Source: a virus
DNA: 64,000 bases
Direction: 5' to 3' (one strand)
IMG/VR virus record: IMGVR_UViG_3300040801_001492
Coordinates: 1-64,000 of that record
In this document: piece by piece, positions 1-23,307 of the stretch
Position numbering within the stretch: position 1 is the stretch's first letter
Layout: each line of letters opens with the position of its first letter
Notes under the pieces: generated by a model
Told to the model about the DNA's origin: nothing
Seen by the model: the letters and a program-made list of their open reading frames with translations, nothing else
Databases searched by the model: none
Position numbers and translations under genes: made by a program

Positions 1-1131
1 CCCCCCTGAACTTACTGATATATCATAATCCTCATTATTATAGGATATGTTGTTTTTAAGTGTTCTTGTTTGTTCGAGGCTATCAGAGCTATCGGTATTC
101 CATAGCTTTATCCCATATGTTGTATATCCAAACCCATCATACCAACCATTGTGGTAAATAGTATTATTGAATATATAGCTGCTATTTGCTGCTGTTTCGT
201 TGTCATTGAAGTTTATTCCAGCATACCTATTATATGCAATAATAGAGTTAGTAATTTTCCTTCTTAATTCTATTGAGGGATCAAGATATACAAAGCCTAT
301 CTTAAACCCGTTACCCATAGCATACAGAGAACCATTATTAAATGACCAGCAACTATCAACCTCTACGTATCCCTGGTCAAAGAAAACAAAGCCGTTATCA
401 GAACAATTCCATGCTCTGCATCCTTTAAAGTATGTACTACTTAATTCATCGTCATCCTCAATAGTCGAAAACCCTGAACCCCTTTCTCCAGGCGTATAAC
501 TATACGGATCAATACAATTATAGGCGTCACAATTTATTACCTGAACATTTCTTGGTGTGCTTAACCGAAACGCTATACCCTGTATATTATATATAACACA
601 TTCCTCAAATATCACATCCTGCCCTCCTGTTAAAAACGCAAAGCACTGCACCGGCGTTCCGCCTATACCTCCCTCAACTTGATTAACATTTCTTATGTGC
701 AGTCCTTTAAACCAACAATAATCAGCAGCAGGCTCTCTTATCCCATAATGACCTGTAACTTCAGGCACAATATTTCCACAGTCTAATATAGGTGTCTGCT
801 CCGGATAAGCCCAATAATGCACATAATTGCCTTCTGTGCCTATTTGTGTTATTTCATAACCTGTTCCACCACTTGACCTGTTGGGATAATACCAGGCACT
901 TTCTCCCTCCTCTAAATCTTTATAATAGATACCGCCCATAAAGTAAATAGTATCACCAGGGTCTATCGCCAAATGATTAAATGCTTTCCCCCATGTAGCC
1001 CATGCACCGGTAGAAGATGAATCTGTACCTGCATTAGAATCGTTACCTCTGGGCGACACATACCACGTATCCTGTCCATAAATGTTTATGCCAAGAGTTA
1101 ATATAAATAATATCACTAAGTATTTTCTCAT
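1..1131 (-). CDS. Secreted right-handed beta-helix protein, PL9 pectate-lyase-like; runs off the window edge and is missing from the ORF track
   Basis: Manual translation from ATG at 1131: MRKYLVILFILTLGINIYG-QDTWYVSPRGNDSNAGT...AWATWGKA...PGDTIYFMGG...CRAWNCSDNGF...GNGFKIG...; open to base 1. The YVSPxGND, PGDTI and GNGFK motifs are typical of PL9/DUF1565 beta-helices. Confidence 0.8.
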   Translation of the reverse strand, partial: MRKYLVILFILTLGINIYGQDTWYVSPRGNDSNAGTDSSSTGAWATWGKAFNHLAIDPGDTIYFMGGIYYKDLEEGESAWYYPNRSSGGTGYEITQIGTEGNYVHYWAYPEQTPILDCGNIVPEVTGHYGIREPAADYCWFKGLHIRNVNQVEGGIGGTPVQCFAFLTGGQDVIFEECVIYNIQGIAFRLSTPRNVQVINCDAYNCIDPYSYTPGERGSGFSTIEDDDELSSTYFKGCRAWNCSDNGFVFFDQGYVEVDSCWSFNNGSLYAMGNGFKIGFVYLDPSIELRRKITNSIIAYNRYAGINFNDNETAANSSYIFNNTIYHNGWYDGFGYTTYGIKLWNTDSSDSLEQTRTLKNNISYNNEDYDISVSSGG

Positions 1132-1132
1132 A

Positions 1133-1894
1133 TTAATAAATTGAAAATTCACTATTTAACCATGTTCTTATTGATGCCTGATCCCCGCTGCTATCAGCAC
1201 CTTCTCTTACTATAACATAGAAATATGCCACATCGGAGTAATAACCAAGTGCCGCCCTGCTACCAAGCCTTATGCCGCTCATGTTCTCTGCCCCCACATC
1301 AAGACCCGTCTCTTCACTATCATTGTCTATCCTAAAGGTACTGGATGCCCCGTTGAACACTGCTGTCATCAAGTGCAACTGATCATAAACCATTGTTGCC
1401 GTTATGCCCGCCGTTGTGCCTGCATTAAGGTAAAGTTCAGTCGAATCTGACGACTGTGCCAAGCGAGGGTCTAAATTAGCATCCGATGAGCTAAAAAAAG
1501 CACCATATTGTTCATGGGTGTGTGCCCTGAGAACAAGATACACCGTAATGGGTTGGTCAAGGGTGTCTATGCCCGAATCATAATATATGTAATTATCAAC
1601 ACCATCAAAAAACACACTATCGCCTGAATGTCTTGGCATGTCTGTTAATGTTGATTGCTCTAAATGCCTATCGTTTCCAGACTTGTCATTCCATTGGTTT
1701 ATTGTGTCATTCGTTTCATAGGTCATATAAGTAGCTATAGCCTCAAATTCTGCATAGGTATTCCCATCATCCATACACGCTGGTCTGCCACTCGAAACAT
1801 AATGAGCCGAATTGACAATAAGCCCACCACTAACTTGCCCAAAGCAAATTATCGGCAGCAATAAAAGTAATATGCCAAAATATAGTTTTTTCAT
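1133..1894 (-). CDS. Signal-peptide protein with LamG/concanavalin-like lectin domain
   Basis: MKK plus hydrophobic stretch, cleavage CFG-Q; WNDKSGNDRHLEQ...VFFDGVDNY pattern of phage LamG-like domains. Confidence 0.65.
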   Translation of the reverse strand: MKKLYFGILLLLLPIICFGQVSGGLIVNSAHYVSSGRPACMDDGNTYAEFEAIATYMTYETNDTINQWNDKSGNDRHLEQSTLTDMPRHSGDSVFFDGVDNYIYYDSGIDTLDQPITVYLVLRAHTHEQYGAFFSSSDANLDPRLAQSSDSTELYLNAGTTAGITATMVYDQLHLMTAVFNGASSTFRIDNDSEETGLDVGAENMSGIRLGSRAALGYYSDVAYFYVIVREGADSSGDQASIRTWLNSEFSIY

Positions 1895-3282
1895 TCTAAG
1901 TGTCCAAATATGTTAATAATTAACTGTCGTGGTTTGGCTGTCGCCTCTTTGATGGTAGCCCAAAACCATTTACCAGCAGCAACAGTCCCATTTGTCATAC
2001 CTGTTGAGGAATCTCCCGAAGTAGTGCTTGTCACCGTAAGGTCACTTGTTAATACCTCAGTAGCCCCTGCATCTCTGTAATTGTCATCATAGTACAGGTT
2101 AATATCAACATCAGGCGAGCTGCCCTGAACAACAGCAGTAACAGAATCAATGACAAGACTGTAACCCCCGCCTATCTGAGTGCCAAATAAAACACTATCT
2201 ACATTGAAAAACAGAGTGTCATTGACATTGTTATATCCTATCGTATAAGAGTACATCGGTCTTACATCATCAATAAGCAGGGGCTCATCTGTTGACCTTG
2301 CTGAATAAGGAACATAAGGATTTAAGGTATCAGCACCATCGTAGAAATAAAGGTTGCTGCTAACATCAGAGGTGATACTGTCAAGCTCAACCATATCGCC
2401 TCCTGTTACCCCTACATTTAGCTTTGCAACGGTTAGGTCTGCTATTGACGTGTTACCCGTATGGCTCTCATTAGATATGTCTGCCTTTGCGTTTATCTGC
2501 GTCTGCACATCTGTACCCGATATTGTCTTTAATAGCTCTGCATCACCCTCGGTAATCACATCATCACCTATTGTTATCTGTGTGGTGAAGGTAGGAGATG
2601 AAAACATTGTAGCTTTACTTTCGTTAGTAACATTATTAAGAGATAGATCAGTCTTTAGCTCTGCTGCAGAGCGTGCAGTAATAGTATTATCTGCGTTAAA
2701 CCTTGGAAAAGTAACTGCCGAAGGATTAGTTAAGGTAAATATATTCTGTCCTATTGTTGTACCACCGAGACTTGTTCGTCCTGTAGCTGCCACTAAACCA
2801 GTAGCACCACCATCCCATTTAAGTCGGTCTGTATATGCAGTATTCCAGTTAGTAGAATTATCTGATACAATGGAATAACTTCCTGCACCTGTACGAGACA
2901 ATAATCCATTCGATCCAAAATCACCGTCTTCTAAATATCCTTGAGTACTGTGGTCTCCCCAACCATAGGCTGTATTCCAGTTAGCTGAGTTATTAGCAAT
3001 AGAAGAACCCCAAGCAGCTCCTGTTGAAAGAGCTATACCTGCATCTGGATATGTCATACTACCGCCACCTCCTGTACCAGCCAGTCTAACACCTTGAGAA
3101 TAGAAATAAATAGTATCATTACTTATTATAGCACTATCTATTTTTTGTATATTACTACCAGATACGGAATCACCTATCTGTATTCCACTGATAGCATTTA
3201 TTCTATATTTAAAAACATTCTGACTGAAAGCAGCAGATGCTATAAATAAAAATCCTATAATTATTAGTATTAATTTCTTCAT
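1891..3282 (-). CDS. Tail-fibre-like protein with N-terminal signal peptide
   Basis: MKKLILIIIGFLFIASAAFS-Q; fibre-type segments NWNTAYGWGDH and LSLNNVTNESKATMFSSPTFT; G/S/T-rich. Confidence 0.6.
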   Translation of the reverse strand: MKKLILIIIGFLFIASAAFSQNVFKYRINAISGIQIGDSVSGSNIQKIDSAIISNDTIYFYSQGVRLAGTGGGGSMTYPDAGIALSTGAAWGSSIANNSANWNTAYGWGDHSTQGYLEDGDFGSNGLLSRTGAGSYSIVSDNSTNWNTAYTDRLKWDGGATGLVAATGRTSLGGTTIGQNIFTLTNPSAVTFPRFNADNTITARSAAELKTDLSLNNVTNESKATMFSSPTFTTQITIGDDVITEGDAELLKTISGTDVQTQINAKADISNESHTGNTSIADLTVAKLNVGVTGGDMVELDSITSDVSSNLYFYDGADTLNPYVPYSARSTDEPLLIDDVRPMYSYTIGYNNVNDTLFFNVDSVLFGTQIGGGYSLVIDSVTAVVQGSSPDVDINLYYDDNYRDAGATEVLTSDLTVTSTTSGDSSTGMTNGTVAAGKWFWATIKEATAKPRQLIINIFGHLE

Positions 3283-3283
3283 A

Positions 3284-3577
3284 TTAACTTGGTTTCTTAA
3301 ATGATGTTAATGTCTCCCAGTCAGTATCTTCGTCACCATCCCAGCCTGTATCTGTTAGTTTAATATCTAAATACAGTGTATTATCAGCAAACCTAAATCT
3401 AAACTCATTATCGCCGTCTACAAACTTAATATTCTTTAGTTCTAACGTATCTTCGTCAGAGAATTTAGTATTTATAAAATCAGCTAAAGCACTAGCCCAT
3501 CCTCTTATGAAAGGCCGACCTGCTGTATAATAATACCTACGAAAAGTTAAGTCTGGAATTATTCTAAATATTCCCAT
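3284..3577 (-). CDS. Small structural protein, paralogous at its N-terminus to 9992..10927
   Basis: Shares the IFxIxPDL...W..A.ADFIN..F.DE..L motif. Confidence 0.55.
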   Translation of the reverse strand: MGIFRIIPDLTFRRYYYTAGRPFIRGWASALADFINTKFSDEDTLELKNIKFVDGDNEFRFRFADNTLYLDIKLTDTGWDGDEDTDWETLTSFKKPS

Positions 3578-3594
3578 GGTTATACTGATTGTTT

Positions 3595-3921
3595 TTAATT
3601 ATCTTGATAACTACCTATAATATGCACATAAATATCACTTTGATCCCCATGTATAGCATATATATCACTAAGTTTATTATGTTCTATTGTTACTTCTTCA
3701 CCAGCAGCTAATACATAACCATCGCTGGCAGTAATAGCAGATGTACCCACAGTAACAGAGGCAGCATTATCTGCATGTGCTTTAATAGTTATCCATCCTG
3801 ATTTATTTACATTATATACTTGTGTAATTGTAGTACCTACAGTTACTGTATCTGCAAAGAAAACAGTTGGATAAGATGTATTTCTAGCTATTCGTTGACT
3901 TGAATCTGGTATATTTCCCAT
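3595..3921 (-). CDS. Small beta-rich virion protein
   Basis: Pattern IKAHADNAASVTVG...GYVLAAGEEVTI...IYAI recalls small phage jelly-roll proteins; lies in the structural block. Confidence 0.5.
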   Translation of the reverse strand: MGNIPDSSQRIARNTSYPTVFFADTVTVGTTITQVYNVNKSGWITIKAHADNAASVTVGTSAITASDGYVLAAGEEVTIEHNKLSDIYAIHGDQSDIYVHIIGSYQDN

Positions 3922-3932
3922 TGTATTATATT

Positions 3933-4085
3933 TTAATGTCTTTTGTCAATAATCTTATCATCTTCATCTTCGGTTACATCAGGTAACTTAGGATCAACTT
4001 TTATACTTTTAAACTTTTTAGTTAAAAGAAACCCTAAAGCTACTAATATACCTACTATTCCTAAAAAAATTAATATATATTTCAT
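3933..4085 (-). CDS. 50-aa single-pass membrane protein (not in ORF track)
   Basis: MKYILIFLGIVGILVALGFLLTKKFKSIKVDPKLPDVTEDEDDKIIDKRH*; fills the gap between co-oriented genes. Confidence 0.7.
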   Translation of the reverse strand: MKYILIFLGIVGILVALGFLLTKKFKSIKVDPKLPDVTEDEDDKIIDKRH

Positions 4086-4096
4086 AATATGTTGTT

Positions 4097-4444
4097 TTAT
4101 TCTACGTGTATTTGTTGTGTTAAGGTAATATCTACTTGTGTGGCTTCGCCAGCATCGTCTGTTATACGTATAGTCATACTTCTAAGTGATCCTGTAGTAT
4201 TATTTTCACGTGCTTCGACTCTAAAAGAATAATCTCCTGTATCACCTGTAGTAGAAAGTATTCCCCAACCTGTACCATCACTAGTATCTACCTTTGCTAT
4301 AGAAGTATCCATATCATCAGGACTTACATCTATAGCACAATAATCGCTATAATCACCGCTATCTCCTCCGAGAAGCAGTTCGTTAGTATCTGTTGATATA
4401 ACAGGTTCTACTTCAGTATTATGTAATAAACTATGATGTATCAT
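4097..4444 (-). CDS. BACON-domain protein
   Basis: C-terminal ENNTTGSLRSMTIRIT...VDITLTQ BACON pattern. Start placed at the TAATG overlap with the upstream stop. Confidence 0.65.
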   Translation of the reverse strand: MIHHSLLHNTEVEPVISTDTNELLLGGDSGDYSDYCAIDVSPDDMDTSIAKVDTSDGTGWGILSTTGDTGDYSFRVEARENNTTGSLRSMTIRITDDAGEATQVDITLTQQIHVE

Positions 4445-7320
4445 TATAAAGGACTTACTGCTGTTGAACGTGTTGACCATAAATATCTTGTTGTTCCGCC
4501 ATCATCCCACCTAAGAACAGTAGCTAGAATTACCGCTGTTGATGTGTAGGCTATAGTTGATGGGTCTGAATTAGCTGGTAATGTGAGTGTACCATTGGTA
4601 TCACTCTTTATTATCAGCACACCACTATCGCCGTCTACCATGTGGGATATACTAAGTGTGCCTGTTGCCTGTGAGGTGGGAGCCCATGTGAAGTTATGTG
4701 AAGTATCAAAATCCCAAGAAGGATTAGCATCATTATCTGTTGTTATCCATGCTACATCACCTTCATCATATACTTCCTTACTGTCTACTGTCATTGTACC
4801 AACAACATTAAAAACTCCACCACTATAAGTTAGGTTACTTTCTCCTTCTACTTCACTAGCACTTGTCCATACAGCTAACTCATTATTAGAAGGACTACCC
4901 GCTACACTAGCATAGCCTGTATGCGTATGTCCTGGATTTGAGCCCGATGTTACATTAGCTCCTGTAACTGTTGTAGCAGCTAACGTACCAGTAATCTGCA
5001 ACGTTGCACCATCCCAGTTAAGTGAACTGGCTCCTTCAACTGCACTACTACTAGTCCAAACAGCAAGATAATTATTTTGTGGTGTTCCGCTTATAGTTGG
5101 TACACCATCTACTGCAAAAGTAATAGTATTACTTGAACGAGATACGCTCATACCAGAACCTTCAGAAAAAACTATTGTTTCTCCATCATTTATAGTAGTA
5201 GCTGCTTCATTATCAGTATCAATATTAAATGATCCCATTGCATTACTGATAGATAGTGGTACTGAAGTTATATTGTCCCAATGTACCTGGCCACCACTAC
5301 CGCTTGTATTAAGTTCAGTTTCTGTATAATATCTGGCATCAAAACCAGTATAAGAAGATAAATTACTTATAGCTGATGTTGTATGTGTATGTCCAGGATT
5401 ACTTCCTGTAGTAACATTAGCACCTGTAACAGTTGTTCCTGCTATAGTACCAGTTACCTGTAAAGTACTACCATCCCAAGTAAGATTAGCATCGCCACCA
5501 ATAGAATCACCGCCTAATGTACTCCAAAAAGCTAATTGGTTCTGTACTGGTGTTCCATCTATGGCAGGCACATCATCTATTGCAAAAGTAAGAATATCCT
5601 GTCCTGCATCTACTCCTGTAGTAGGAGTAATAGTAATATTACTTCCACCTACGAAATCTACATAGTCAGTGCCTGAAGAAGCACCAACAGTTCCTTTATC
5701 TACACCATCAACCTTAAGGTTCCATCCACCATAGTAATCTTTTGTATTAAAAGTAGACCAATCGGCTGATGTCAAATAACCACTCTGTACAGCACTAGCT
5801 GATTGAGTAGCTATAGTATGTTGTCCTGATGTTAAGTGATAATACTGACCAGCACTACCACCTTGCTTAGATGTTGTATCATTGTGTGCTATTACGCTGC
5901 CTATAAATATCCAATTACTACCGTCGAATGTATGCCATCCTACGTCATTAGTAGGAGTAATAGAGTTTTCTTCTACATTAAGAGTATCACCATCGCTAGG
6001 TGTAGTTTCATCCCAAGTACTACCTGTTGAATCCCATTCATATATACGATTAGCTACCATAGCCTGTGCCGTTACTGAACTATTACCAGTAGCAGTATTT
6101 ATATATCTATCTCCATCATCAGGAGCAGCGGGTTCATTAGTAGTAAAATTAATTATATCTGTAACCCCAGTTAACCATGTTATTCCTGATGCCATAGCAC
6201 CATCTACATAACCCTTATCTACTAAAGAACGTGCAGTATAATTACCAGAATAGTCTGCATCATACTGTAATCCTGCGGGTGTACCACTTCCATCTGTAAT
6301 GGTAGTAGCACTTGTAAAGCTTAAATCATTATCTTCTATAGTTAATCCTTCAATAGTTACACCAGCATCGGTTGTTGATTCGGTTATAGTATCTACATAA
6401 AGAGTACCTGATAATTCTGCTGATCCGAATACTTCAAGTGCATATGTGGGAGCACCAATACCAATACCTACCTTACTATCTTTTAATATAGTACCTTCTA
6501 TAGTAACACCAGCATCTGCTGTATATTCAGTAAGGTCATCTATCTTTAAAATATCTCCTGAACGGCCGTCTAATAAAGCATATTGACTATGATCATCATC
6601 CGATAACCCACCTAACTCATCATGATCTAAACTAGCTTCGGCGACTATACTAGCTACTGAGCGTTTGGTTAAAAATCCTGTACCATCATCAATAGCTACT
6701 ACATGAAGCTCTGCATCATCATCAGGTAGTTCAGGCATTGTTACAAATCCAGTAGGATATATAGAGAAAACAATATCTGTTGTATCTGGTTTATAAACGA
6801 CAAATGAATATGTATAAACAGGAGTATTGGTATCTCTAATAGACCAAAAAGCAGATGTACTATAAGTACCTGTTAAGACTCTTTTAGAAGAAATAGTTAT
6901 ATCAGTATCATCTAAAGCACTAATATTTAAACCATTAGTACTTGAATCTAACTCTATAGAAGCATGATCTGTAGTACCATCATTATTAGAAAAAATTATA
7001 CCCGGCGTACCTGAACTATCTTCTATATGTAGATATTTATCTGTAGTATCATAATAAAGATTACTTTGACTATCTATATCACCACCAGTAGCACCTATCA
7101 CCAAAGGTTGCTTACCTGATTCAGTACCCCAAACTACAGGATCAGATGACCAAACAAGATTAGTACCATCATTAGATAAAAAATCACCTATATGACCACT
7201 AAATTCCAACAATGATGCTGGAAAAGTTATAGAGCCAGAATACTCTAAAGGATCATTACCTGAAGGAGCACCTGAGCTACTATAAGTAAATGGACTATCA
7301 TTAATTGAAAAAGCACTCAT
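4444..7320 (-). CDS. Long tail fibre / fibrous virion protein (958 aa)
   Basis: G/S/T/D-rich; internal repeats (GTPxxNxLAxW...LxWDG..LQ.TG, GSNPGHTHT x2, DAGVTIEG x2); HxH motifs. Confidence 0.75.
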   Translation of the reverse strand: MSAFSINDSPFTYSSSGAPSGNDPLEYSGSITFPASLLEFSGHIGDFLSNDGTNLVWSSDPVVWGTESGKQPLVIGATGGDIDSQSNLYYDTTDKYLHIEDSSGTPGIIFSNNDGTTDHASIELDSSTNGLNISALDDTDITISSKRVLTGTYSTSAFWSIRDTNTPVYTYSFVVYKPDTTDIVFSIYPTGFVTMPELPDDDAELHVVAIDDGTGFLTKRSVASIVAEASLDHDELGGLSDDDHSQYALLDGRSGDILKIDDLTEYTADAGVTIEGTILKDSKVGIGIGAPTYALEVFGSAELSGTLYVDTITESTTDAGVTIEGLTIEDNDLSFTSATTITDGSGTPAGLQYDADYSGNYTARSLVDKGYVDGAMASGITWLTGVTDIINFTTNEPAAPDDGDRYINTATGNSSVTAQAMVANRIYEWDSTGSTWDETTPSDGDTLNVEENSITPTNDVGWHTFDGSNWIFIGSVIAHNDTTSKQGGSAGQYYHLTSGQHTIATQSASAVQSGYLTSADWSTFNTKDYYGGWNLKVDGVDKGTVGASSGTDYVDFVGGSNITITPTTGVDAGQDILTFAIDDVPAIDGTPVQNQLAFWSTLGGDSIGGDANLTWDGSTLQVTGTIAGTTVTGANVTTGSNPGHTHTTSAISNLSSYTGFDARYYTETELNTSGSGGQVHWDNITSVPLSISNAMGSFNIDTDNEAATTINDGETIVFSEGSGMSVSRSSNTITFAVDGVPTISGTPQNNYLAVWTSSSAVEGASSLNWDGATLQITGTLAATTVTGANVTSGSNPGHTHTGYASVAGSPSNNELAVWTSASEVEGESNLTYSGGVFNVVGTMTVDSKEVYDEGDVAWITTDNDANPSWDFDTSHNFTWAPTSQATGTLSISHMVDGDSGVLIIKSDTNGTLTLPANSDPSTIAYTSTAVILATVLRWDDGGTTRYLWSTRSTAVSPL

Positions 7321-7574
7321 ACTGTACGATATTTTCTACAACGGTTATATAATATCTGAACCTGCTCATTAATATAATCATAATGGTCATCTTGAAAAAT
7401 CAAAACTCCATACTTTAAAGCATTTAATAAATTAGAAGCATACAGTAATAGGTCTAGATTAGTATTAGAAGAACGTCCTAATTTACAGTCACGTGCTATT
7501 AATAAACCTAAATCTACTAATACTGTCTTAGCCTTAACAACTAATGCATCATAATAATCCTGTGTCCAGACCAT
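7317..7574 (-). CDS. Hypothetical structural-module protein
   Basis: ATGA overlap with the fibre gene; position. Confidence 0.55.
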   Translation of the reverse strand: MVWTQDYYDALVVKAKTVLVDLGLLIARDCKLGRSSNTNLDLLLYASNLLNALKYGVLIFQDDHYDYINEQVQILYNRCRKYRTV

Positions 7575-7580
7575 AATATT

Positions 7581-8171
7581 TTACCATAAATCGGTTAAAC
7601 TTCTAGCACTATAGAAACCATTTATAGTCTCTACTATCTCTTCAAAATCAGTATACCTACTAAGCTCAGCTGCCCTAACAGCAGCATCTAACATGGCTAT
7701 AATAAGAAACTGTAACCTACTTTCGTGATAATCTAAATCATCTACATCGAGCTCAAAAGGAAGCTGTGCTGCTTTACAGTATGCTTCAGCAAGAAAACCT
7801 TCCGTTTCAGTATCAGTCATACTGCCTTCAGTATCGTGTTCTACATCTAGTTTTATTGTATAATATCCATCAGGAAAGTAATCAGCATCTAGAGAAGCTC
7901 CGGTACCATCTAAGAGGTCTTCGGGGTTAACATCATAATATGAATTTATTGAATCCCCGAATAAATTTACAGAAGTAGCTCCTAAACTGATTAAATTAAT
8001 ACCTCCTACTGAATCATATAATTCTAATGTATAATCTGTACTATCATATGTAACTGTTAAATCAACTGAAGTAATATCTGCATCACTAAAACCTACCCAG
8101 TCGGTATTATCAGATAACTTAAATTTTGTTGCGTTTGTATATTCTTCTATTGCAATAGCTAATGTTGCCAT
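7581..8171 (-). CDS. Putative tail/fibre attachment protein
   Basis: Ig-like segment FPDGYYTIKL plus helical C-terminus; position upstream of the fibre gene as in crAss-like phages (inference). Confidence 0.45.
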   Translation of the reverse strand: MATLAIAIEEYTNATKFKLSDNTDWVGFSDADITSVDLTVTYDSTDYTLELYDSVGGINLISLGATSVNLFGDSINSYYDVNPEDLLDGTGASLDADYFPDGYYTIKLDVEHDTEGSMTDTETEGFLAEAYCKAAQLPFELDVDDLDYHESRLQFLIIAMLDAAVRAAELSRYTDFEEIVETINGFYSARSLTDLW

Positions 8172-8182
8172 TCTTTATTTTT

Positions 8183-8632
8183 TTAATTGAAATAATCTAA
8201 AAAACCATATTTTTTCCTTAACTTCCTATAACCAAGTAATCTATTCTTAGGATAACGCTTTATACAAACAGAAGAATCTTGATTGCCACCCAAAATATAA
8301 ATATATCTATCATCATGATTGATATAGAAACCTACATGTCCTTTCCACGATACTTTGCTCTCTCTCCAAAGAACAACAATACAACCTAATTCAGGTTCAT
8401 CTAGTTCAACACCTACATCAAGCCATGAACGTGCTGTTAATTTACCAGAACGCTCGTAATAATTTCTTTTACATAAGTAATTAATGAAAGCTGAGCACCA
8501 AGCAGTCTCATCTGTCTGTACCCAATTTTCGCCTATTTCTTCAAAAAAATCTAATATTTGTGGATTATGTTGCTCTCCAGTTATCTCTTCTAACCCATAA
8601 TACTGAAAAGCTTCATGAAGCAAATCAATCAT
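8183..8632 (-). CDS. TIGR02594-family CHAP/NlpC-P60-like peptidoglycan hydrolase (endolysin candidate)
   Basis: DETAWCSAF, ARSW, GHVGF and LGGNQ motifs. Confidence 0.88.
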   Translation of the reverse strand: MIDLLHEAFQYYGLEEITGEQHNPQILDFFEEIGENWVQTDETAWCSAFINYLCKRNYYERSGKLTARSWLDVGVELDEPELGCIVVLWRESKVSWKGHVGFYINHDDRYIYILGGNQDSSVCIKRYPKNRLLGYRKLRKKYGFLDYFN

Positions 8633-8645
8633 ATAAGATATAATA

Positions 8646-8674
8646 AAGTGTAGGGGTGGTATTCCCCTACACTT
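8646..8674 (-). terminator. Intrinsic terminator after the auxiliary capsid gene
   Basis: AAGTGTAGGGG-N7-CCCCTACACTT inverted repeat followed by TATTAT on the minus strand. Confidence 0.75.
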
Positions 8675-8688
8675 AAATTATTTTTATC

Positions 8689-9951
8689 TTAGGATACGCT
8701 GAGAACGGCATCAAAGTTAGTGTTGTCAGTAGTCAGGTCATCATCCAGAGCGATTATCATACGCCATTTAGATATTGGATTGTGTCCTGTAGTAGCAGAT
8801 GCATAATTACTTTCATGACATTCAAATGAATAAATGTCGTAAGTTTCACCGGCCACTGCTTCATCTATCCTTACATTAGGAGGATAAGCACTTACAATAC
8901 GGTCTTTATCTTGGAACTGTGCATAAGACTGCAGATAACGTATCTGGTCTTCAAGTCCTGATCCAAGAACAGGTGTTGTTGAATAAGTTACTTCTGCTGT
9001 ATTGAAATCATCAGAAGCTACATCAAACATAACCTGGAATACACTATCGGTAGCACCAACGAAGTCTCCTTCATCAGGTGTATTACCATCCATACGTACT
9101 CCCCAATTAGCAGCTAAACCAGTAGCAGAAGTAATAACTTCAGCCATATCACCAGCAGCGGTATAACTACCAGAGGCTACATTAATTGGCCTATCTACAG
9201 TTACTGTAAGAGTATCTATAGCAGTTACTTTATATACAGCACTGGTAAGTGAAGTAGCAGCGGCTGTTTTAGCTGTACCACCTAGCCTTACATAATCACC
9301 TACTGCAAGAGTTCCAGCAGCCGTGTTATACTGAAGGTTAGTACCTACAGTAAAGGTTTTAGCACCGTTAGTAATAGTTGCGTTGTTATCAAAGCAGTTA
9401 GCTGCAGTTACTGCAACATTACATACAGCATCAAAAATGACATCCCTATTCATCCTACCACGCCTAAAAGCTTTATCACCAGCAAGTGTAAGACCTAATG
9501 CAAGGTCTTCCTGGCTTGAACTAGATGCGGTTTTGTAAGGAATAGTTCTAATCAGAGGACTGTTATTCAGCGTACCAGCGGTATGCTTAAGAATAACTTT
9601 CAGTCCAAAATAGGTAGAATCGCTATCATCCATTGAACCGGATGTACCGTTATACCCAAGATAAGTTATTTGTTCTGTCCTTGCAAAGTCGGCAAGAAAA
9701 GTCTCGTTAAAGACATCTCCACCATCAAACAAAGGACTTTTATGTAACGAACCGTCAGCATCTCTCCATGCAAAAACATATTTACTGCCTGCAGCAAGAG
9801 CTGTGTCTTCTTCATAACCAAAGCCTCCTATAGCGTCCTGCTCAAGGAAAAACCCACCTGAACCATCAGGGAGATCACCTATCGCATCACCATCAGAGAG
9901 ACCATTAGCTATTGTAAGTACGGCTACATAAGTTACGGAATCTTCAAACAT
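8689..9951 (-). CDS. Putative auxiliary capsid / structural protein (crAss gene-73-like position)
   Basis: 420 aa, acidic and beta-rich; downstream of the MCP block and followed by a terminator; assigned by synteny. Confidence 0.55.
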   Translation of the reverse strand: MFEDSVTYVAVLTIANGLSDGDAIGDLPDGSGGFFLEQDAIGGFGYEEDTALAAGSKYVFAWRDADGSLHKSPLFDGGDVFNETFLADFARTEQITYLGYNGTSGSMDDSDSTYFGLKVILKHTAGTLNNSPLIRTIPYKTASSSSQEDLALGLTLAGDKAFRRGRMNRDVIFDAVCNVAVTAANCFDNNATITNGAKTFTVGTNLQYNTAAGTLAVGDYVRLGGTAKTAAATSLTSAVYKVTAIDTLTVTVDRPINVASGSYTAAGDMAEVITSATGLAANWGVRMDGNTPDEGDFVGATDSVFQVMFDVASDDFNTAEVTYSTTPVLGSGLEDQIRYLQSYAQFQDKDRIVSAYPPNVRIDEAVAGETYDIYSFECHESNYASATTGHNPISKWRMIIALDDDLTTDNTNFDAVLSVS

Positions 9952-9991
9952 AATTTTCTAAGTATTTAATTTAACAATATTTTATTTCTTT

Positions 9992-10927
9992 TTATCTACG
10001 CTCCTGTATAACAGTTACGTAATCAACTAACAAGCTTTCAGCATTAGTATCACCGGCTTTAACACCTATGACAATATGCATTTCTTCAAGCCCTGATATG
10101 GTAATGTTATGAGCATCACCAGCTACTCCATTAAGATAAGGTGTAATTATGCCAGTTGTACCGTCATTATAATCATACATGAAAGCAAGATTATAAGTAG
10201 TACCACTAACAAAATCTCCTAAATCATCGTTAGTTACTTGAGTAGCAGCATTCGATGTTTCAAACTGAATACTCATATCGCCATCTTCTTTGAAAAAGAC
10301 AGCACCATCATAGCTAGCTGCGGGGCCGTCTCCATCATCTTGAAGAAAATTAGCAGCAGCATTATCGGATAGACCGATTACCCAGTTAGCATCATCTGTA
10401 TTAGCTTCAGTAAGCTTTATACGACATTTGAACAGAAGTTTTTTGTCTGTATCAAATTTAAAAGCTTCAGTAGCAGAAGACAGGTAAGTTTCGTTATTAT
10501 CAGTATTAGTAGCATTCACTTCAAGCCATCCGCCTAGACCATCTTCAACACCTGTAGTTCCTATGGCATCAGTAACAACTGCATAACCCATAGACCCGTT
10601 AGCTATATCATCAATAGCAGGAGTGATAAAGTCATCCATAAAGATTATCCAGTCTGAAGGATCAACACCGTTCCAAACAGGAAAACCAGAGGCTGCCGAT
10701 AAATTACTTACCATAGCACCGTCTTTAAAGGTAACACTTTCTATCGTTACTCCGCTATTTTCAGTTGCTTCAGTAATAGTATCTACATTAAGATCATTCT
10801 CATCTGTAAATCTATGATTAATGAAGTCAGCAATAGCATTAGCCCAGTCTGCTATACGTGGTTTACTAGCCGCATGATACTTGGCAAAATTCAAGTCAGG
10901 GACTATTTTAAATATACTCATTTGCAA
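9992..10927 (-). CDS. Putative head fibre / decoration protein with lectin-like C-terminal domain
   Basis: N-terminal motif shared with 3284..3577; VDTITEATENSGVTIE shared with the long fibre; F.DDF...VDYV beta-sandwich pattern. Confidence 0.55.
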   Translation of the reverse strand: MQMSIFKIVPDLNFAKYHAASKPRIADWANAIADFINHRFTDENDLNVDTITEATENSGVTIESVTFKDGAMVSNLSAASGFPVWNGVDPSDWIIFMDDFITPAIDDIANGSMGYAVVTDAIGTTGVEDGLGGWLEVNATNTDNNETYLSSATEAFKFDTDKKLLFKCRIKLTEANTDDANWVIGLSDNAAANFLQDDGDGPAASYDGAVFFKEDGDMSIQFETSNAATQVTNDDLGDFVSGTTYNLAFMYDYNDGTTGIITPYLNGVAGDAHNITISGLEEMHIVIGVKAGDTNAESLLVDYVTVIQERR

Positions 10928-10939
10928 TTTTATTTTTAA

Positions 10940-11632
10940 TTAATAATTCAATCTTTGATCATCAGTTACAGTAAGCTGAAACCCATTAGGGTCTAGAACA
11001 GACATATGTGCTAACACTACTGCTTCTTTAACTATCTCACTCTGTACTCCTTCGTTGAGTACACAGTCAGAACCGCTTGCTATAGAATAAGTATCAGGAT
11101 GCTTAACACCAACAAACTTATAGGCTGTGGGCTCTTTACCGTCAGTAATAAACACAGGTCGGTGTGTATTATCATTATCCTCATCTAATACTGAGATAAC
11201 CCAAAACCCTTCTTCAACTGAAGGAGAAGTAAAAGGATTATCTAGGTTTTTTTGATAAAAATGGAAGCTTTTCCTTAGCAATGGTATACGTGAATAATTA
11301 GCTGTAGTAACATATTCATCTAATATCCAAAAATACTCATCATCAATCTGGCTGCTGCCAGTATCTAAAGTAAAAGCAGCTGTACCATCGCTATTTAAAA
11401 AATAACTATCGGTAGTAATAGTAGTTTCCGACTCTGATTCAATCAAAGGAGCAATAGCCGTCATACTGAGTATTCCTTTCTCAAGACCTTCCTCTAGTAT
11501 CTTACGTACTATACGCCTTTGTGCTACGGTAAATAAACTACCCCACTCTGTGTCTAAAAAACCTGGAGCATCGGAACTATTAATACTTTCATAAAGTATC
11601 TCAGCCTCTGCTCTCATCTGAGCAAACGTCAT
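10940..11632 (-). CDS. Putative tail tubular / ring protein (crAss gene-74-like)
   Basis: SSDAPGF..TE.....TVAQ N-terminus and CVLNE....EIVKEAV C-terminus resemble crAss ring proteins; synteny. Confidence 0.6.
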   Translation of the reverse strand: MTFAQMRAEAEILYESINSSDAPGFLDTEWGSLFTVAQRRIVRKILEEGLEKGILSMTAIAPLIESESETTITTDSYFLNSDGTAAFTLDTGSSQIDDEYFWILDEYVTTANYSRIPLLRKSFHFYQKNLDNPFTSPSVEEGFWVISVLDEDNDNTHRPVFITDGKEPTAYKFVGVKHPDTYSIASGSDCVLNEGVQSEIVKEAVVLAHMSVLDPNGFQLTVTDDQRLNY

Positions 11633-12516
11633 TATTTAATGTCTTTAGCTTGTGCAACTAATTTTAAATATATATCTTCTTTTGTCTTCTCTGCTCCAGC
11701 AAGATAATTAACAAGTTCTTTATATGAATATGATACATTTTCACCTACCACCATATATTTGTTACGTGCTTCTTTAATTATCGAACCTGCTCTTATAGAA
11801 GAGTTAATAAGTGTTTTTATCTTCGAAGCAGGATCATTTACTATCTTAATAAATAAATCTGTTTCATCCTTAACTACTTTATTAACTTCTTTCTGCAGAA
11901 ACTCTAATGATGCATCTTCAGGAACAAATTTCATCTCGTTCTTCTCTAAGAAGTAAACACCTAAGATGTTTTTAAGCTTAGGAATAGAGTTTCTTATTTC
12001 ACCATACTTAGTATAAGCTTCAGCCATCTTAGCACCAGCATCCAGCTCCTGTGCTTCTTCATAGCCTTCATCAACAAGAGCAAACTTATATTCACCCTTA
12101 TTAAATCTATCTTCCCAACTAGGAGCAACAAAGGCTTGCATCTTAGTTACTCTATAACGAAGGTTATCCATTGGGTCTGATAAATCAAACTTATATCCTT
12201 CATGCATCAAATTATAATCTTTGATAACCTTAACAAAAAAGGTATGCCAAAAATTATCTTTCTTTTTGTGGATACTTAAATCTATATCCAACTCTTTTTC
12301 AAAAAACTGTTTTTCTTCATCACCTAAAGGAAATGGATTAGCATATCCGCCACGCTCAGCCTTAGGCAGCTGAAACCAGTTTTTGGCTCCCTCAATCTGA
12401 AAATATGCTACGTGTTCTGGACTCTTTACTAATTTACCTCCTCTTGGTACTGGTTTTAAAAATACTTTTTTCTTCTGTAAATAGCCTTTATCAAAGGCTT
12501 CTCCTACTGTTGTCAT
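11632..12516 (-). CDS. Conserved crAss-like protein downstream of MCP (gene-75-like)
   Basis: DNFW...FDLSDPMD..RY...APSW pattern; synteny. Confidence 0.6.
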   Translation of the reverse strand: MTTVGEAFDKGYLQKKKVFLKPVPRGGKLVKSPEHVAYFQIEGAKNWFQLPKAERGGYANPFPLGDEEKQFFEKELDIDLSIHKKKDNFWHTFFVKVIKDYNLMHEGYKFDLSDPMDNLRYRVTKMQAFVAPSWEDRFNKGEYKFALVDEGYEEAQELDAGAKMAEAYTKYGEIRNSIPKLKNILGVYFLEKNEMKFVPEDASLEFLQKEVNKVVKDETDLFIKIVNDPASKIKTLINSSIRAGSIIKEARNKYMVVGENVSYSYKELVNYLAGAEKTKEDIYLKLVAQAKDIK

Positions 12517-12534
12517 ACTGTTATTTATTTAATA

Positions 12535-12564
12535 AAAAATAATGGGGGAGGGATGCTCCCCCAT
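12535..12564 (-). terminator. Intrinsic terminator after the major capsid gene
   Basis: Minus strand reads ATGGGGGAG-CATCC-CTCCCCCAT-TATTTTTT. Confidence 0.85.
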
Positions 12565-12572
12565 AATTATAA

Positions 12573-14066
12573 TTACGCTCTAAGAATAGAAGGAATTACC
12601 CTAGCAGTCTTCTTCATATTGGTAATTTTTATACCACCAATATATGCTTTATAGACAGAATAACCGTCTACTGAAGTAGCCATCATCCTAGGATCAGTCC
12701 TCTTATTATATGGAGAGAAAGGGTCTCTTAATCCAGGCATATAACCGAAGAACTCTTCTTCATCCTTCACACTAACCCTAACAATGTTAGATTCACCATT
12801 AGTAGTACCTACATCGAATATATCATAGATATATGAACTTGCAAGTCCACCATCAGGGTGAGTAAGTGTATTAGGATAACCATCTTTCATAGGATCAATA
12901 GTCAGCTTAAACTTAATACCGTTTACACTAACATAATTGAGGAATTGTCCTTCATCAAGAGTAAGTTTACCGTCCATAGTTTTGATGTTAACATCACTCT
13001 GCAGATAAGTAAAGCCAGAAGCTTTATTTACTGCATCCTTATGGAATTGGTATGCACCATATTCTCCTGTTGAGAGTACAAATTCACGCCTATCTTCGGG
13101 TATCTTGCCATAAGACATATCCATAGCGAAATCAGTCAGCATATCCAATGAGAATGAGCTGTAAGAAAGTATATTACCATATTCCATCTGATCATAAAGA
13201 CCAAAACCTGAACGTATAACATTACCTGATTCACCTGTATGTCCATAAGTACCATTGTCAAGCTTGTTAGACTTACCATAAACAAGAAGTCTAGCTTTAT
13301 CTCTTTCGAACTGTACGAAGAAGTCCCATCCCAGTTTATCTATCCAGCGGGTCTGCATCTTACCATCTTGGTCAACAAAAGCATAAGCAAGAGGCTTATT
13401 TTTACCTTTGCTAATCATGTTACCAGGAACATCATAATTCTTACGAATCATTGAACAGACATTCTCTAATTGATAAGGAGCAGTATGGTGAACACCAGTA
13501 CCTCTCTTGGAGAGTTCTTGTTCAACCATACCAAACATCTCTGAGAACAATATACCTGCAGCCAATTCTTCAGCAGGTACCCAGAGGGTATCATCACTGG
13601 TAAAGTTTTGTACTTTATATCTCCACAGGTTACCTACCTGTACAGGGTCTTCAACAACCCTAAACTGATAAACTTCGGGTTTTCTTCCTACAATATGTGA
13701 TGTAGCTTCAAAATACCTTTCGTTGAACCACAGGTAAAAATGACCACGGTTAAGTCCGGCTTGATCAGCATCTTCTACTGTATCTGTTTTAGTAGTAGAA
13801 GTAGAAGCAGCTACCAATGGTATACTACGTTCATCTGATCCTTGTAAGAACCATCTGTAAGGAACATCATCATTAATATACTCAACAGGAAGCTTATTAA
13901 CCATAGAAACTATGTTATCACTTCCAATATTGAGATCATATAAACGATACATAACCTTACTGATTACTTCAGGCTCTTGCATACCAAGCCATCCTAGGTG
14001 GGATTCTCTTGTGAGTCCACTCCAGTGTTTTTGATCTACAATCTGAAGGTCACTAATTTTATTCAT
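12573..14066 (-). CDS. Major capsid protein (crAss-like)
   Basis: 497 aa; WSGLTRESHLG N-terminus, VEQELS, TGEYGAYQFH and GLRDPF motifs recalled from crAss MCPs; synteny with portal. Confidence 0.88.
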   Translation of the reverse strand: MNKISDLQIVDQKHWSGLTRESHLGWLGMQEPEVISKVMYRLYDLNIGSDNIVSMVNKLPVEYINDDVPYRWFLQGSDERSIPLVAASTSTTKTDTVEDADQAGLNRGHFYLWFNERYFEATSHIVGRKPEVYQFRVVEDPVQVGNLWRYKVQNFTSDDTLWVPAEELAAGILFSEMFGMVEQELSKRGTGVHHTAPYQLENVCSMIRKNYDVPGNMISKGKNKPLAYAFVDQDGKMQTRWIDKLGWDFFVQFERDKARLLVYGKSNKLDNGTYGHTGESGNVIRSGFGLYDQMEYGNILSYSSFSLDMLTDFAMDMSYGKIPEDRREFVLSTGEYGAYQFHKDAVNKASGFTYLQSDVNIKTMDGKLTLDEGQFLNYVSVNGIKFKLTIDPMKDGYPNTLTHPDGGLASSYIYDIFDVGTTNGESNIVRVSVKDEEEFFGYMPGLRDPFSPYNKRTDPRMMATSVDGYSVYKAYIGGIKITNMKKTARVIPSILRA

Positions 14067-14099
14067 TAATATTTAAATTTAAAAAAGGTTTATATCTTG

Positions 14100-15362
14100 T
14101 TATTTCAAAATAGATTGAGTTGAATCAATTATTTTTCTTATGTTTTTTTCGTTATAACTGTCATTAGCTACAACTGAACGCCCTGATTGAGAGCCTGTAT
14201 TTTTCTTTTTACTGAGGTAGTTCTGTAGTTCGGAAGCTTTCTTAGTGTTTATAACTTTCTCTATCTTACTCCAAGGCTTATCCTTATCGAAGAATCCTGT
14301 TTCATATAAATAAGCTACCTTAGCATCAAAAGAGATGGGGTCTTCCGATCTCTTAGCCCATATAGCATTTGTTGTTCTGCCATCTTGAAGCTTAACAGGC
14401 TTAGTAATAAGATTATACATCTTTTCCTTAGTCTGCTTATTAATACGCTGCTCTGGTATAATCTCAGACAGAGCATTAATATGATCTTTCAGTACCTCAA
14501 GTTGGCGTTGTCTTTCTTGCTCACCAAGCTCACGTTGGCGTTGTGCTTCCTGCTTTTGAGTTTCTATCTGCTCAGTAATAAGAGATTTAATATTTTTTAA
14601 TGCATCCTTAGATTCATTAATATCATCCCCCATATCTACTGCATTCTGCACCAGCTTATCTATCTTAGCATCTGAAAAACGAGTGGTAAGCTTATAATAA
14701 TCTGTAAGAACAGATTTTCTTAGCTCATCATTAGTCTCGCTATCTAAATCTTCTTCGGCTATATTGCTAAACTTATCATTCAATCCTGATAAGGAAGCTG
14801 CTGCATCATCGGATACGCCCTGTCCTATCATCTCTAGATAGTGTTTGTACCCTTCATCGAGATCGGTCTTAGCTGCTTCTATACTTTCATTAACCTCACC
14901 TTCTATGAGACTATGAAAAGCTTCAGCTTCGCCTTTCTCTTCAATAATCTGCTGATATTTTTCTTCATCAAAATCAGATAGTATACCCCGCTCCATCAAA
15001 TCCCTAGCAAAAATAACAGTAAAAGGAGCATCAGAAGAAGACTTTTTTGTTTCGTCAGGAGCGGGGTCGCTATCTAAATCTTTATTATCGTCCTTGTCTT
15101 CATCATCGTCATCCTCGTCATCTTCATCATCACCGCCCGACTCTAGTTCGGACTTTGCCAGTACTTGATTAATATCACTCAGATCATTGTCTGTATCTTT
15201 ATTGTCTTTGTTCTTATCTGTTGAATCTTCTTCTTCATCATCAACAGTATTTTCTTCTTCATCTTCTATTGCAGGAGTTTGTTCCAACATATCGTTAATA
15301 TCAAAAGTATCTCCGAAATCTGCAACTTCTCCAAAATCTGCATTCAATCCTTTTTTGCTCAT
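14100..15362 (-). CDS. Acidic scaffold-like protein
   Basis: D/E-rich N-terminus and coiled coil; sits between portal and MCP. Confidence 0.65.
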   Translation of the reverse strand: MSKKGLNADFGEVADFGDTFDINDMLEQTPAIEDEEENTVDDEEEDSTDKNKDNKDTDNDLSDINQVLAKSELESGGDDEDDEDDDDEDKDDNKDLDSDPAPDETKKSSSDAPFTVIFARDLMERGILSDFDEEKYQQIIEEKGEAEAFHSLIEGEVNESIEAAKTDLDEGYKHYLEMIGQGVSDDAAASLSGLNDKFSNIAEEDLDSETNDELRKSVLTDYYKLTTRFSDAKIDKLVQNAVDMGDDINESKDALKNIKSLITEQIETQKQEAQRQRELGEQERQRQLEVLKDHINALSEIIPEQRINKQTKEKMYNLITKPVKLQDGRTTNAIWAKRSEDPISFDAKVAYLYETGFFDKDKPWSKIEKVINTKKASELQNYLSKKKNTGSQSGRSVVANDSYNEKNIRKIIDSTQSILK

Positions 15363-15379
15363 TTTTATGCTAGTTTATA

Positions 15380-15411
15380 CAAAAGTAATTATTATTATTT
15401 CAATATACAAA
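15380..15411 (-). promoter_or_regulatory. Bacteroidota sigma-A-type promoter for the scaffold/MCP operon
   Basis: TTTG-N20-TACTTTTG on the minus strand. Confidence 0.8.
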
Positions 15412-15448
15412 TCCTTAAACTAATTTAGTAGTTCTGGTATAACGAAAA

Positions 15449-17806: not shown

Positions 17807-17836
17807 ATGTTTTTAAATTTTTACAAATATACTATT

Positions 17837-20800: not shown

Positions 20801-21172
20801 TGGTATCCATTCGCCGTCCTCACGTACTAATCCATCACGACACCTACGAGCTTCTTCTTTCCAAAAACGTGCGTAGCTTGAGTTGGGATGGGTATTAGGG
20901 TGTATTCTAGTAAATGTTTTATATTGTTGAAAATGTATAGCTGCCTGTCTAAAATAATCCATATCCTCTAATATATGAGGATTAGATATATCAACCTCTA
21001 TCTTACCTTCTTCATCTTTTGGTAAATCAGCTATACGTGGTCTATTAGGACTAATAAGCCTTTTAACAAACTCAATAGTATCTATAACATCAAATATTTC
21101 TTCTTTTAGTTCTTTAGATAGTTCTTTTAACAGAGTATCATCTAAAGGTGTTTGTATTTCATTTAGTTTCAT
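17837..21172 (-). CDS. terL: Terminase large subunit with intein
   Basis: LKRRGVGFSY Walker A region, EEFG, GGTGG, nuclease GVDPID and GNFDRVSA. Confidence 0.92.
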   Translation of the reverse strand: MKLNEIQTPLDDTLLKELSKELKEEIFDVIDTIEFVKRLISPNRPRIADLPKDEEGKIEVDISNPHILEDMDYFRQAAIHFQQYKTFTRIHPNTHPNSSYARFWKEEARRCRDGLVREDGEWIPGSYYFYLNYSPILLTSKINKSGKSGTKILDFPHVYDGDYLYYHYKDQARKEGEHVAMLKRRGVGFSYKSGSDLARAFILGESSINTNNVTCFAIANEKEYLTKDGILNKFVHHVNWCAEHTPWSRLKLKDSYNEMQWVMGYKNREGLVKGTQNSVIGVTTQGDPDKARGKRGPLVYWEEFGKNPYLLQSWEIARHSVEDGDISVGQLIGGGTGGTESADFKGAETLFYSPGGYHVRAIPNIYDKNAIGQTKCAFFFPAYLNRTGCYDKNGNSDVVAALLRILEERIKIKYGSTDTNALVQHKAEMCITPQDAVMRREGNIFPVVDLKDMVAEAVVDINKFTASHYVGTLKNKADGQIDWDMQQNHPVLREFPIKDDIDRTGCVEIFELPKRDSEGRVPFGRYIAGVDPIDSDEGTYTVSLGSCFIFDLWTDRIVAEYSGRPPRATDFYDTALRLIRYYNAQANYENNIKGFFAYAENMNLLQYLSDTPQILRDMDLIKGAGFGNTAHPYSEYIYTPSGKKQWKDIKIGDIIFADNGQSTKVVDIPFDDFTDIYKITLFDGRIVYASNNHLWDVLKPSTKQRSTLSTKELFYKYKRLHKSGYSTHEYLIPSSSKVEFNKQDVPIDPYTLGLLLGDGSVKSTKGNTVRFTSNYCDLTEYNKFIPNIYKFTTPSDDRHCYIRIPNAESYLKKLNLNNKTSINKFIPNIYKFNTSEIRLNILKGLLDTDGYVGQGTPVFNTISKQLAEDVCFIARSLGYHSKIYLNKAGYKKGDIYIQCNDSYAIKIWTNENLFKLPRKLKKLSKNPSGKLKARMLGIPIIDIKYSHREKAKCITVNNKSECYLINDFIVTHNSKGTTASKFVNAWGRKLQADWMISSAYTLEEDEYDEEGNKIEKPQLLNLHTIRSLGYLREAIAWDPDGNFDRVSAMGMCMVLREDRIKYINRNVEDKINDRFKDNFFNRLGGFNYRSKFKKKFDFRYSRGEKDYEKLI
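18254..19285 (-). mobile_element. LAGLIDADG intein (344 aa), class 3 signature
   Basis: Begins AHPYSEY and ends IVTHN followed by Ser; HLW in block B, KCITV in block F; LGLLLGDGS and LKGLLDTDG endonuclease motifs. Confidence 0.9.
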
Positions 21173-21785: not shown

Positions 21786-21804
21786 AAACCACTGATTATC
21801 AACA

Positions 21805-22356: not shown

Positions 22357-22358
22357 AA

Positions 22359-22493
22359 CTACTTCCCTCCTTTTCTATTAAGTACTTTAAACAATAGTTT
22401 ATTCAATTCTCTATCGCTTAAATGTTTAAAATACTTAGGTTTTCCCTCTTTAGGTATACAATCATATATACCAGCTTTGGTTATTGTTTTCAT
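22359..22493 (-). CDS. 44-aa hypothetical (not in ORF track)
   Basis: MKTITKAGIYDCIPKEGKPKYFKHLSDRELNKLLFKVLNRKGGK*; ATGA overlap with the upstream gene. Confidence 0.55.
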   Translation of the reverse strand: MKTITKAGIYDCIPKEGKPKYFKHLSDRELNKLLFKVLNRKGGK

Positions 22494-23305: not shown

Positions 23306-23307
23306 GA

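Follow-up and report, generated by a model that had tools for sequence, protein, structure and literature searches.

The stretch of DNA considered here, referred to below as the window, comprises positions 1..64,000 of the IMG/VR contig IMGVR_UViG_3300040801_001492 (101,445 nt), which belongs to an uncultured crAss-like phage of a Bacteroidota host. The window opens with three consecutive, translationally coupled genes on the minus strand, here called A, B and C, each of which starts with a basic hydrophobic leader followed by glutamine. A is a fibre with tail-fibre repeats and a jelly-roll tip, B has a predicted lectin fold of the ConA/LamG type, and C, judging from its sequence, is a putative lyase in which an Fn3-like domain follows a PL9-type beta-helix. 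Here we argue that these proteins are very likely exported, so that host-recognition gear of this phage very probably matures in the periplasm and not in the cytoplasm, where the textbook assembly of tailed phages takes place in its entirety. The whole explanation that we propose, in which A, B and C are exported by the Sec pathway of the host, cleaved by its signal peptidase I and brought together with the phage particles at lysis, has, in our estimate, about equal chances of being right or wrong.

Three consecutive genes with export leaders

The leaders of A, B and C follow one design, namely MKK or MRK at the start, then 12-15 hydrophobic residues, a small residue at position -1 and Gln at position +1, and the predicted cleavage sites lie after A-F-S in A, after C-F-G in B and after I-Y-G in C, with Q next in each case. 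An earlier note on this DNA had described three consecutive leaders exposing Gln (AFS-Q, CFG-Q, IYG-Q), and all of them are present as it stated. Leaders were called by a heuristic of our own, which considers the charge, the hydrophobic core and the -3/-1 rule and cannot tell anchors from cleavable leaders. By this measure, a leader followed by Gln is found in 4 of the 124 open reading frames (ORFs) of the genome, and a Sec-type leader of any kind in 7; a run of three leader-bearing genes appears in 1.3% of random gene orders, and the run seen here exceeds chance. In the AlphaFold2 (AF2) models, the leader forms a detached N-terminal helix, which is followed by a disordered linker. The Q-rule, as well as the cyclization of Gln in the periplasm, has been described previously (PMC5837995).

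When considering export, it is important to ask whether the leaders are removed: could they be uncleaved signal anchors that, like those of signal-anchor-release (SAR) endolysins, keep A, B and C fixed to the periplasmic side of the inner membrane up to the time of lysis? The length of the hydrophobic cores would suit such anchors. However, the small residues at -3 and -1, together with the invariant Gln at +1, fit cleavage by signal peptidase I, the n-region and the overall length of 19-20 residues are typical of cleavable leaders, and, in most members of the C family, the cut falls directly ahead of the start of the beta-helix cap, so that permanent anchoring appears quite improbable. No lipobox is found in A, B or C, the predicted cleavage site being followed by Gln rather than Cys, and lipoproteins processed by signal peptidase II are thereby ruled out. 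Similarly, the C-terminal sorting domain of the type IX secretion system (T9SS; PF18962/TIGR04183) has no match in A, in B or in either half of C (Pfam, E<=0.01; NCBIfam, E<=0.1), which rules out T9SS cargo. Having neither a lipobox nor a T9SS domain, the three proteins should stay in the periplasm until lysis.

Conservation of the leaders and glycosylation sequons

The earlier note had suggested looking at the conservation of the leaders across related phages, and such conservation is indeed seen. Leaders are present in 53 of the best 120 homologues of A (about half), of the 52 homologues that bear a leader (A itself not counted), 50 have Gln at position +1, and Gln21 is one of the only two invariant columns in an alignment of 27 sequences of the A family (31-53% identity). 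Homologues of B keep a near-identical leader, with the mature part diverged or replaced, and nearly all homologues of C carry signals for signal peptidase I or lipoprotein signals.

The second line of evidence comes from the O-glycosylation sequon of Bacteroidota, which we take to be D[ST][AILMTV]. The mature parts of A, B and C together contain 17 sequons versus 7.6 expected (P=0.0004), whereas 21 leaderless proteins of the structural arm contain 53 versus 66.7 expected. The same difference is found among the homologues of A, B and C, where leader-bearing members show 2.5, 2.5 and 1.85 times the expected number, respectively, and leaderless members 0.9, 0.6 and 1.15 times, as well as across 80 viral loci, where proteins with a signal peptide followed by Gln (SP-Q proteins) reach 1.82 times the expectation versus 0.95 for leaderless ORFs. 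Thus, the conserved leaders with their invariant Gln, the sequons enriched in leader-bearing members only and the detached leader helix of the AF2 models are three independent lines that support the export to the periplasm proposed in the earlier note. Export, cleavage and glycosylation of A, B and C are what we infer from these data; docking on the virion, to which we return below, is the least certain step.

These data also bear on the possibility that the leaders are an artefact of annotation. In this case, translation would begin further downstream, past the hydrophobic stretches, and A, B and C would be tail parts of the ordinary, cytoplasmic kind. Indeed, B as listed in the public gene call (P0124, 213 aa) begins at the internal Met41 and has no leader. 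However, dozens of homologues share the leaders at the level of the protein sequence, with Gln invariant, the upstream ATG codons lie 1-4 nt from the preceding stop codons, and sequon enrichment follows the presence of the leader, all of which makes an artefact extremely improbable.

A fibre, a lectin fold and a beta-helix

In the mature part of A, a long shaft with tail-fibre repeats spans about residues 75-260, and a jelly roll at the C-terminus (about residues 335-463) forms the tip. Both motifs that had been singled out in this gene, NWNTAYGWGDH and LSLNNVTNESK, were located in A; the tail-fibre-type segments are therefore present, but they make weaker evidence than the earlier note assumed, as the repeats are found in cellular secreted proteins too. 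The fibre repeat belongs to extracellular fibres in general and is not phage-specific. The central repeats of A, both motifs included, are common to 1500 database proteins and are 60-70% identical to those of leaderless proteins with tail-fibre Pfam domains. The AF2 model of A, predicted as a single chain, is confident only for the leader helix and the C-terminal jelly roll (335-463), the predicted local distance difference test (pLDDT) score of the shaft being below 50. In structural comparisons, the tip is closest to the tail-fibre tip of Agrobacterium phage 7-7-1 (Z 9.4) and to XepA of PBSX (Z 9.0), both values being close to the generic range of jelly rolls; collagen-like phage fibres in BFVD have similar C-terminal domains, and the tip of a leader-bearing member of the A family matches "minor tail proteins" in 266 phage records. 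A shows no significant similarity to the leaderless 958-aa fibre encoded by the same phage, which leaves receptor masking via a duplicated fibre tip unsupported.

The label "lectin-like" that had been given to B holds, inasmuch as the AF2 model (pLDDT 89) is a jelly roll of the ConA/LamG type. A Foldseek search with this model retrieved the trans-sialidase lectin domain (1.7e-8) and also the tailspike of cyanopodophage Pan3, the matches to trans-sialidase lectin domains and related jelly rolls having a probability of 1.00 and a TM-score on the query (TMq) of about 0.6; at the sequence level, no match to Pfam LamG was found. B is distantly related to virion structural proteins, which are among the members of its family, and it matches phrog_10356, "virion structural protein", at 1e-5.

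C comprises 587 aa if translated from the ATG at 1131 and 594 aa from the GTG at 1152, which adds 7 residues. Here the earlier note, which had described these genes as extending over positions 1-3282, was right about the genes themselves and wrong about the end at base 1, as C crosses the circular junction into the end of the contig. Its description of C as lyase-like is in agreement with the match to Pfam PF22842 (Pel9A-like beta helix; 4.5e-16, 59.2 bits versus a cut-off of 25.2) and with the NCBIfam model PelN, which matches both halves of C. The PelN score of 101 bits versus the equivalog cut-off of 740 implies that C is a member of the family and not an orthologue of PelN. C further matches the N-terminal domain of BT0360 at 8e-12, and its nearest solved relative is the Bacteroides rhamnogalacturonan lyase (PDB 5olq; 3.8e-17). 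The Lys of the GFK motif in C aligns with the same motif in 5olq, whereas C has Ser, Asn and Val where three acidic residues stand in the DGF/DDGFD motifs of 5olq; in PL9 enzymes, this Lys is presumably catalytic and the acidic residues presumably bind Ca. C resembles the PL9 lyases (Pel9A/PelN, 5olq) in matching the family models over the whole helix, in the retained GFK Lys and in having an export signal, and differs from them in these three positions, in being encoded by a phage and in having an Fn3-like domain where some relatives have a T9SS domain. As for relatives in cultured phages, one weak match was found for A, two Erythrobacter phages for B, and none for C beyond six uncultured records.

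Genome and operon context

The completeness of the contig is estimated at 99% (CheckV). Its first and last 10 nt are identical (CCCCCCTGAA), positions 1-10 of the window being the same as G000 101436-101445 (L003:18436-18445), and this terminal overlap indicates that the genome is circular even though the contig is classed as "linear". The capsid, portal and terminase proteins match those of crAss-like phages, with an identity of about 34% between the capsid protein and its counterparts in Cellulophaga phage phi14:2 and in gut crAss-like phages; the gene order follows that of phi14:2.

The hairpin upstream of A, B and C (Table 1) is the sole convincing terminator-like site within 1..8700. It is followed by genes for a TIGR02594 hydrolase, a 196-aa and an 85-aa protein, the leaderless 958-aa fibre, a BACON-like protein of 127 aa, a 50-aa membrane protein, a 108-aa and a 97-aa protein, and then by A, B and C; downstream of C are a gene for a 105-aa membrane protein and that for an 862-aa protein. 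In the gene series around A, B and C, neighbouring start and stop codons overlap, as in the ATGA shared by the stop of A and the start of B, or are only 1-2 nt apart, and it is on these grounds that we assign the three genes to a late structural operon. A scan for sigma-70 promoter-like sites gave no excess over chance (34 found versus 38.2 expected).

Table 1. Positions of the leader-bearing genes and of other features (window numbering, except where L003 or G000 is indicated)
Feature	Position	Strand	Description
Gene A, 463 aa	1891..3282	-	Q-rule Sec leader (1-20), small N-terminal beta domain, shaft, tip
Leader of A, 20 codons	3223..3282	-	Predicted cleavage after AFS; Gln codon 3222..3220
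Gene B, 253 aa	1133..1894	-	Q-rule leader (1-19), then predicted ConA/LamG-type jelly roll
Leader of B, 19 residues		-	Ends with CFG; Gln codon at 1837..1835
Gene C, N-terminal 377 residues from ATG at 1131	1..1131	-	Q-rule leader, predicted PL9-type right-handed beta-helix
Leader of C, 19 residues from ATG at 1131	1131..1075	-	Ends with IYG; Gln codon 1074..1072
Gene C, remainder	L003:17803-18435		Across circular junction; helix end, Fn3-like domain, short tail
97-aa protein	3284..3577	-	Leaderless; directly upstream of A, 1-nt gap
958-aa tail-fibre-like protein	4444..7320	-	ORF; leaderless; same operon as A, B and C
Hairpin	8646..8674		Strong, bidirectional; upstream of the co-directional gene run containing A, B and C
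311-aa protein	9992..10927		N-terminus similar to that of the 97-aa protein
86-aa protein	37027-37287		Leader protein, replication arm
129-aa protein	37771-38160		Lipoprotein, lipobox FIGC, replication arm
145-aa protein	63307-63744		Q-rule protein, replication arm
207-aa protein	L003:9932-10555 (G000 92932-93555)		N-terminal membrane anchor
160-aa protein	L003:12767-13249		N-terminus resembles that of the 97-aa protein, by eye
862-aa protein	L003:14897-17485		Leaderless; downstream of C

The 958-aa fibre-like protein, in which sequons are not enriched (7 observed versus 9.4 expected), shows that this phage also owns a conventional, cytoplasmic fibre candidate. The first 50 residues of the 97-aa protein encoded directly upstream of A share 50% identity with the N-terminus of the 311-aa protein, and it is speculative to see the 97-aa protein as an adaptor; that it is a conserved one for docking is not supported, no homologue having been found in five other contigs with leader-bearing fibres. 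The gene for the 97-aa protein and that for the 160-aa protein each lie directly upstream of a fibre-like gene, namely A and the gene for a 635-aa protein, respectively. The 862-aa protein, with an E1_FCCH-like domain (4.3e-8) and weak leucine-rich repeat (LRR) matches, may be another host-binding protein.

Precedents and possible role on the virion

The proposed route of A, B and C can be envisaged as follows. Expression of the three proteins from the tightly coupled structural operon would be late and would be followed by their export to the periplasm, where the leader would be cut ahead of the invariant Gln, the Gln would cyclize to pyroglutamate, and the proteins would, probably, be O-glycosylated. 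Lacking a lipobox and a T9SS domain, they would be held in the periplasm until lysis opens the inner membrane and brings them together with the particles built in the cytoplasm. The most likely role of A, perhaps together with B, would then be that of an accessory receptor-binding fibre that docks on the particle, whereas C would cut the surface polysaccharide of the host, either virion-bound or free. Superinfection exclusion, which is less likely because A, B and C sit in a tightly coupled late structural operon, is the least likely of the roles proposed.

Comparable gene arrays are found elsewhere. Runs of leader-bearing fibre-like, small and beta-helix genes recur in viral contigs L005/L031, L007, L009 and L055, of which L005/L031 is a 92.5-kb contig with ten leader-bearing genes of such kind; in L034, a leader-bearing fibre of 2754 aa is followed by two small leader-bearing genes, with no beta-helix. 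The middle gene of these runs varies, and the order resembles that in Cellulophaga phage phi10:1. In this cultured phage, gp091-094 (KC821618), as well as gp085-087 of phi18:3 (KC821620), carry Q-rule leaders and are annotated as structural by tandem mass spectrometry (MS/MS), the virion status of the Cellulophaga proteins being taken from GenBank notes, "based on experimental MS/MS proteomics". In phi10:1, gp091-094 are followed by the leader-bearing pectate lyase gp095 and by small membrane proteins, which is the order of the A-C locus. Thus, phi10:1 gp091-gp095 and phi18:3 gp085-gp087 are like A, B and C in being consecutive tail-end genes with leaders that end in a small residue and then Gln; they differ in belonging to phages of other families (Assiduviridae, Pachyviridae), in having no detectable similarity to A, B or C, and in being depleted of sequons. 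The literature search turned up no paper that comments on the leaders of phi10:1 and phi18:3.

Together with these two cultured precedents, the fibre-plus-tip architecture of A, the operon position and the homology of the family tip to minor tail proteins speak for a place on the virion. By analogy, joining of the virion gains weight from the Cellulophaga phages, with the proviso that their proteins are not homologous to A, B and C, and we rate the chance that at least A ends up on virions as even.

Several observations weigh against this reading. BLAST comparison of A, B and C with the tail proteins of phi10:1, phi18:3 and phi14:2 gave nothing below E=0.01. Phage phi14:2 is the closest cultured relative, and its gp091-gp097 come from the same virus order, occupy the same position after the capsid, portal and terminase genes and are fibres with related repeat motifs; nevertheless, every MS-verified tail protein of phi14:2 is leaderless. 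The MS-verified leader-bearing proteins of phi10:1 (gp091-095, L087) and phi18:3 (gp085-087, L169) contain 8 sequons versus about 22.7 expected (Poisson P about 4e-4), their detection in virion preparations could reflect co-purified material, and the surplus of sequons in A, B and C could be due in part to motifs conserved within the families and not to selection for glycosylation. The leaderless fibre candidates of this phage (958, 862 and 635 aa) imply that a particle could be complete in the absence of A, B and C, and no docking partner for them was identified, a homologue of the 97-aa protein having been sought in the five leader-fibre contigs. Finally, the fibre repeats are also found in cellular secreted proteins of Bacteroidota and other phyla, and the nearest relatives of C include cellular secreted enzymes, some of them T9SS cargo with PF18962.

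Alternatively, A, B and C may be exported yet never become virion parts, acting instead from the periplasm on the host envelope and, once lysis has occurred, in free form. In this case, the lyase would strip capsule or debris for the escape of progeny, and the fibre and the lectin would bind or mask receptor glycans on debris and on neighbouring cells, much as a factor that destroys or blocks the receptor, such as Llp of phage T5. In favour of such free proteins are the cellular secreted relatives of C, some with T9SS domains, the presence of leaderless fibres in the phage, the occurrence of the fibre repeats in cellular surface proteins, a sequon enrichment that is like that of host secreted proteins and unlike that of the MS-verified Cellulophaga virion proteins, the leader-bearing pectate lyase of phi10:1, which is not annotated as MS-detected, and the small membrane proteins next to A, B and C, which are typical of lysis cassettes. 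However, the fibre-plus-tip architecture of A does not fit easily with this possibility, nor do the conserved, translationally coupled position after the tail fibre genes and the analogous leader-bearing proteins annotated as MS-detected in virions of two cultured phages, and late expression is ill-suited to superinfection exclusion. On balance, free action appears a serious but somewhat unlikely alternative.

Two systems that are generally known offer partial models for free action. Llp of phage T5 is a small, early lipoprotein that masks the receptor, and free phage depolymerases exist; both are extracytoplasmic, are encoded beside receptor-binding genes and act on the receptor or the capsule without being integral components of the particle. 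Unlike Llp, A, B and C are large, late, fibre-, lectin- and enzyme-like and have leaders of the signal peptidase I type. XepA of PBSX (PDB 6i56) is likewise exported, encoded by a phage-like element beside lysis genes, and its jelly roll is the match to the tip of A mentioned above; given its Firmicute host, the missing fibre shaft and the Z value in the generic jelly-roll range, it is only a lead.

Returning to the reading in which A, B and C mature in the periplasm and at least A joins the virion, a counterpart in the literature is the report that phages of Porphyromonas gingivalis encode proteins with Q-rule signal peptides, which was read as an adaptation to host secretion (PMC10367356). 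These, too, are signal peptidase I substrates of phage origin in which Gln becomes exposed; the difference is that they are prophage genes of unknown function, unlinked to fibres, lectins or depolymerases, and that no tail-module triad was described. Phage-encoded Q-rule proteins are thus already known, and what was not found in the literature is their link to the fibre module: the search for Sec leaders on fibre modules of tailed phages yielded only the P. gingivalis phage paper and unrelated work.

Implications

If this reading is correct, a conserved, Sec-addressed module of fibre, lectin and depolymerase would add a periplasmic maturation step for host-recognition parts, and phage proteins could come to carry host-made pyroglutamate and O-glycans, which would affect stability, antigenicity and host range. 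As a tentative generalization, somewhat less probable than the case of A itself, many tailed phages of Bacteroidota might run a second, extracytoplasmic assembly line, from which exported, pyroglutamate-capped and O-glycosylated fibres, lectins and depolymerases would be attached at lysis, so that the infectious virion would carry host-glycosylated parts. On the practical side, automatic gene calling can trim the leaders of phage proteins, as the case of B illustrates, predictors of receptor-binding proteins ignore signal peptides, and fibres produced in the cytoplasm may be immature, which matters for the engineering of Bacteroidota phages from the gut and the sea. Cellulophaga phages phi10:1 and phi18:3, being in culture, lend themselves to a direct test.

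Related proteins in this and other genomes

The replication arm encodes a Q-rule protein of 145 aa and a lipoprotein of 129 aa, both with no Pfam match, as well as a leader protein of 86 aa (Table 1). A 207-aa protein with an N-terminal membrane anchor contains 6 sequons versus 0.8 expected, and the same excess is seen in the anchored proteins gp087 of phi14:2 and gp099 of phi10:1 (4 versus 0.6 in each); these three may be glycosylated periplasmic lysis or spanin-like proteins.

Many proteins from metagenome-assembled genomes (MAGs) of Bacteroidota (L109, L142, L150, L155-L162 and others) combine a Q-rule leader and a QSPQKMSYQAVIRN-type N-terminus with the same fibre repeat as in A, and bacteria of the candidate phyla radiation (CPR) have giant leader-bearing proteins with this repeat. 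Two short contigs binned into MAGs of Thermoleophilia and Clostridiaceae (L089, L108) encode Q-rule fibre proteins that are 37-52% identical to the N-terminus of A and are probably mis-binned fragments of Bacteroidota phages.

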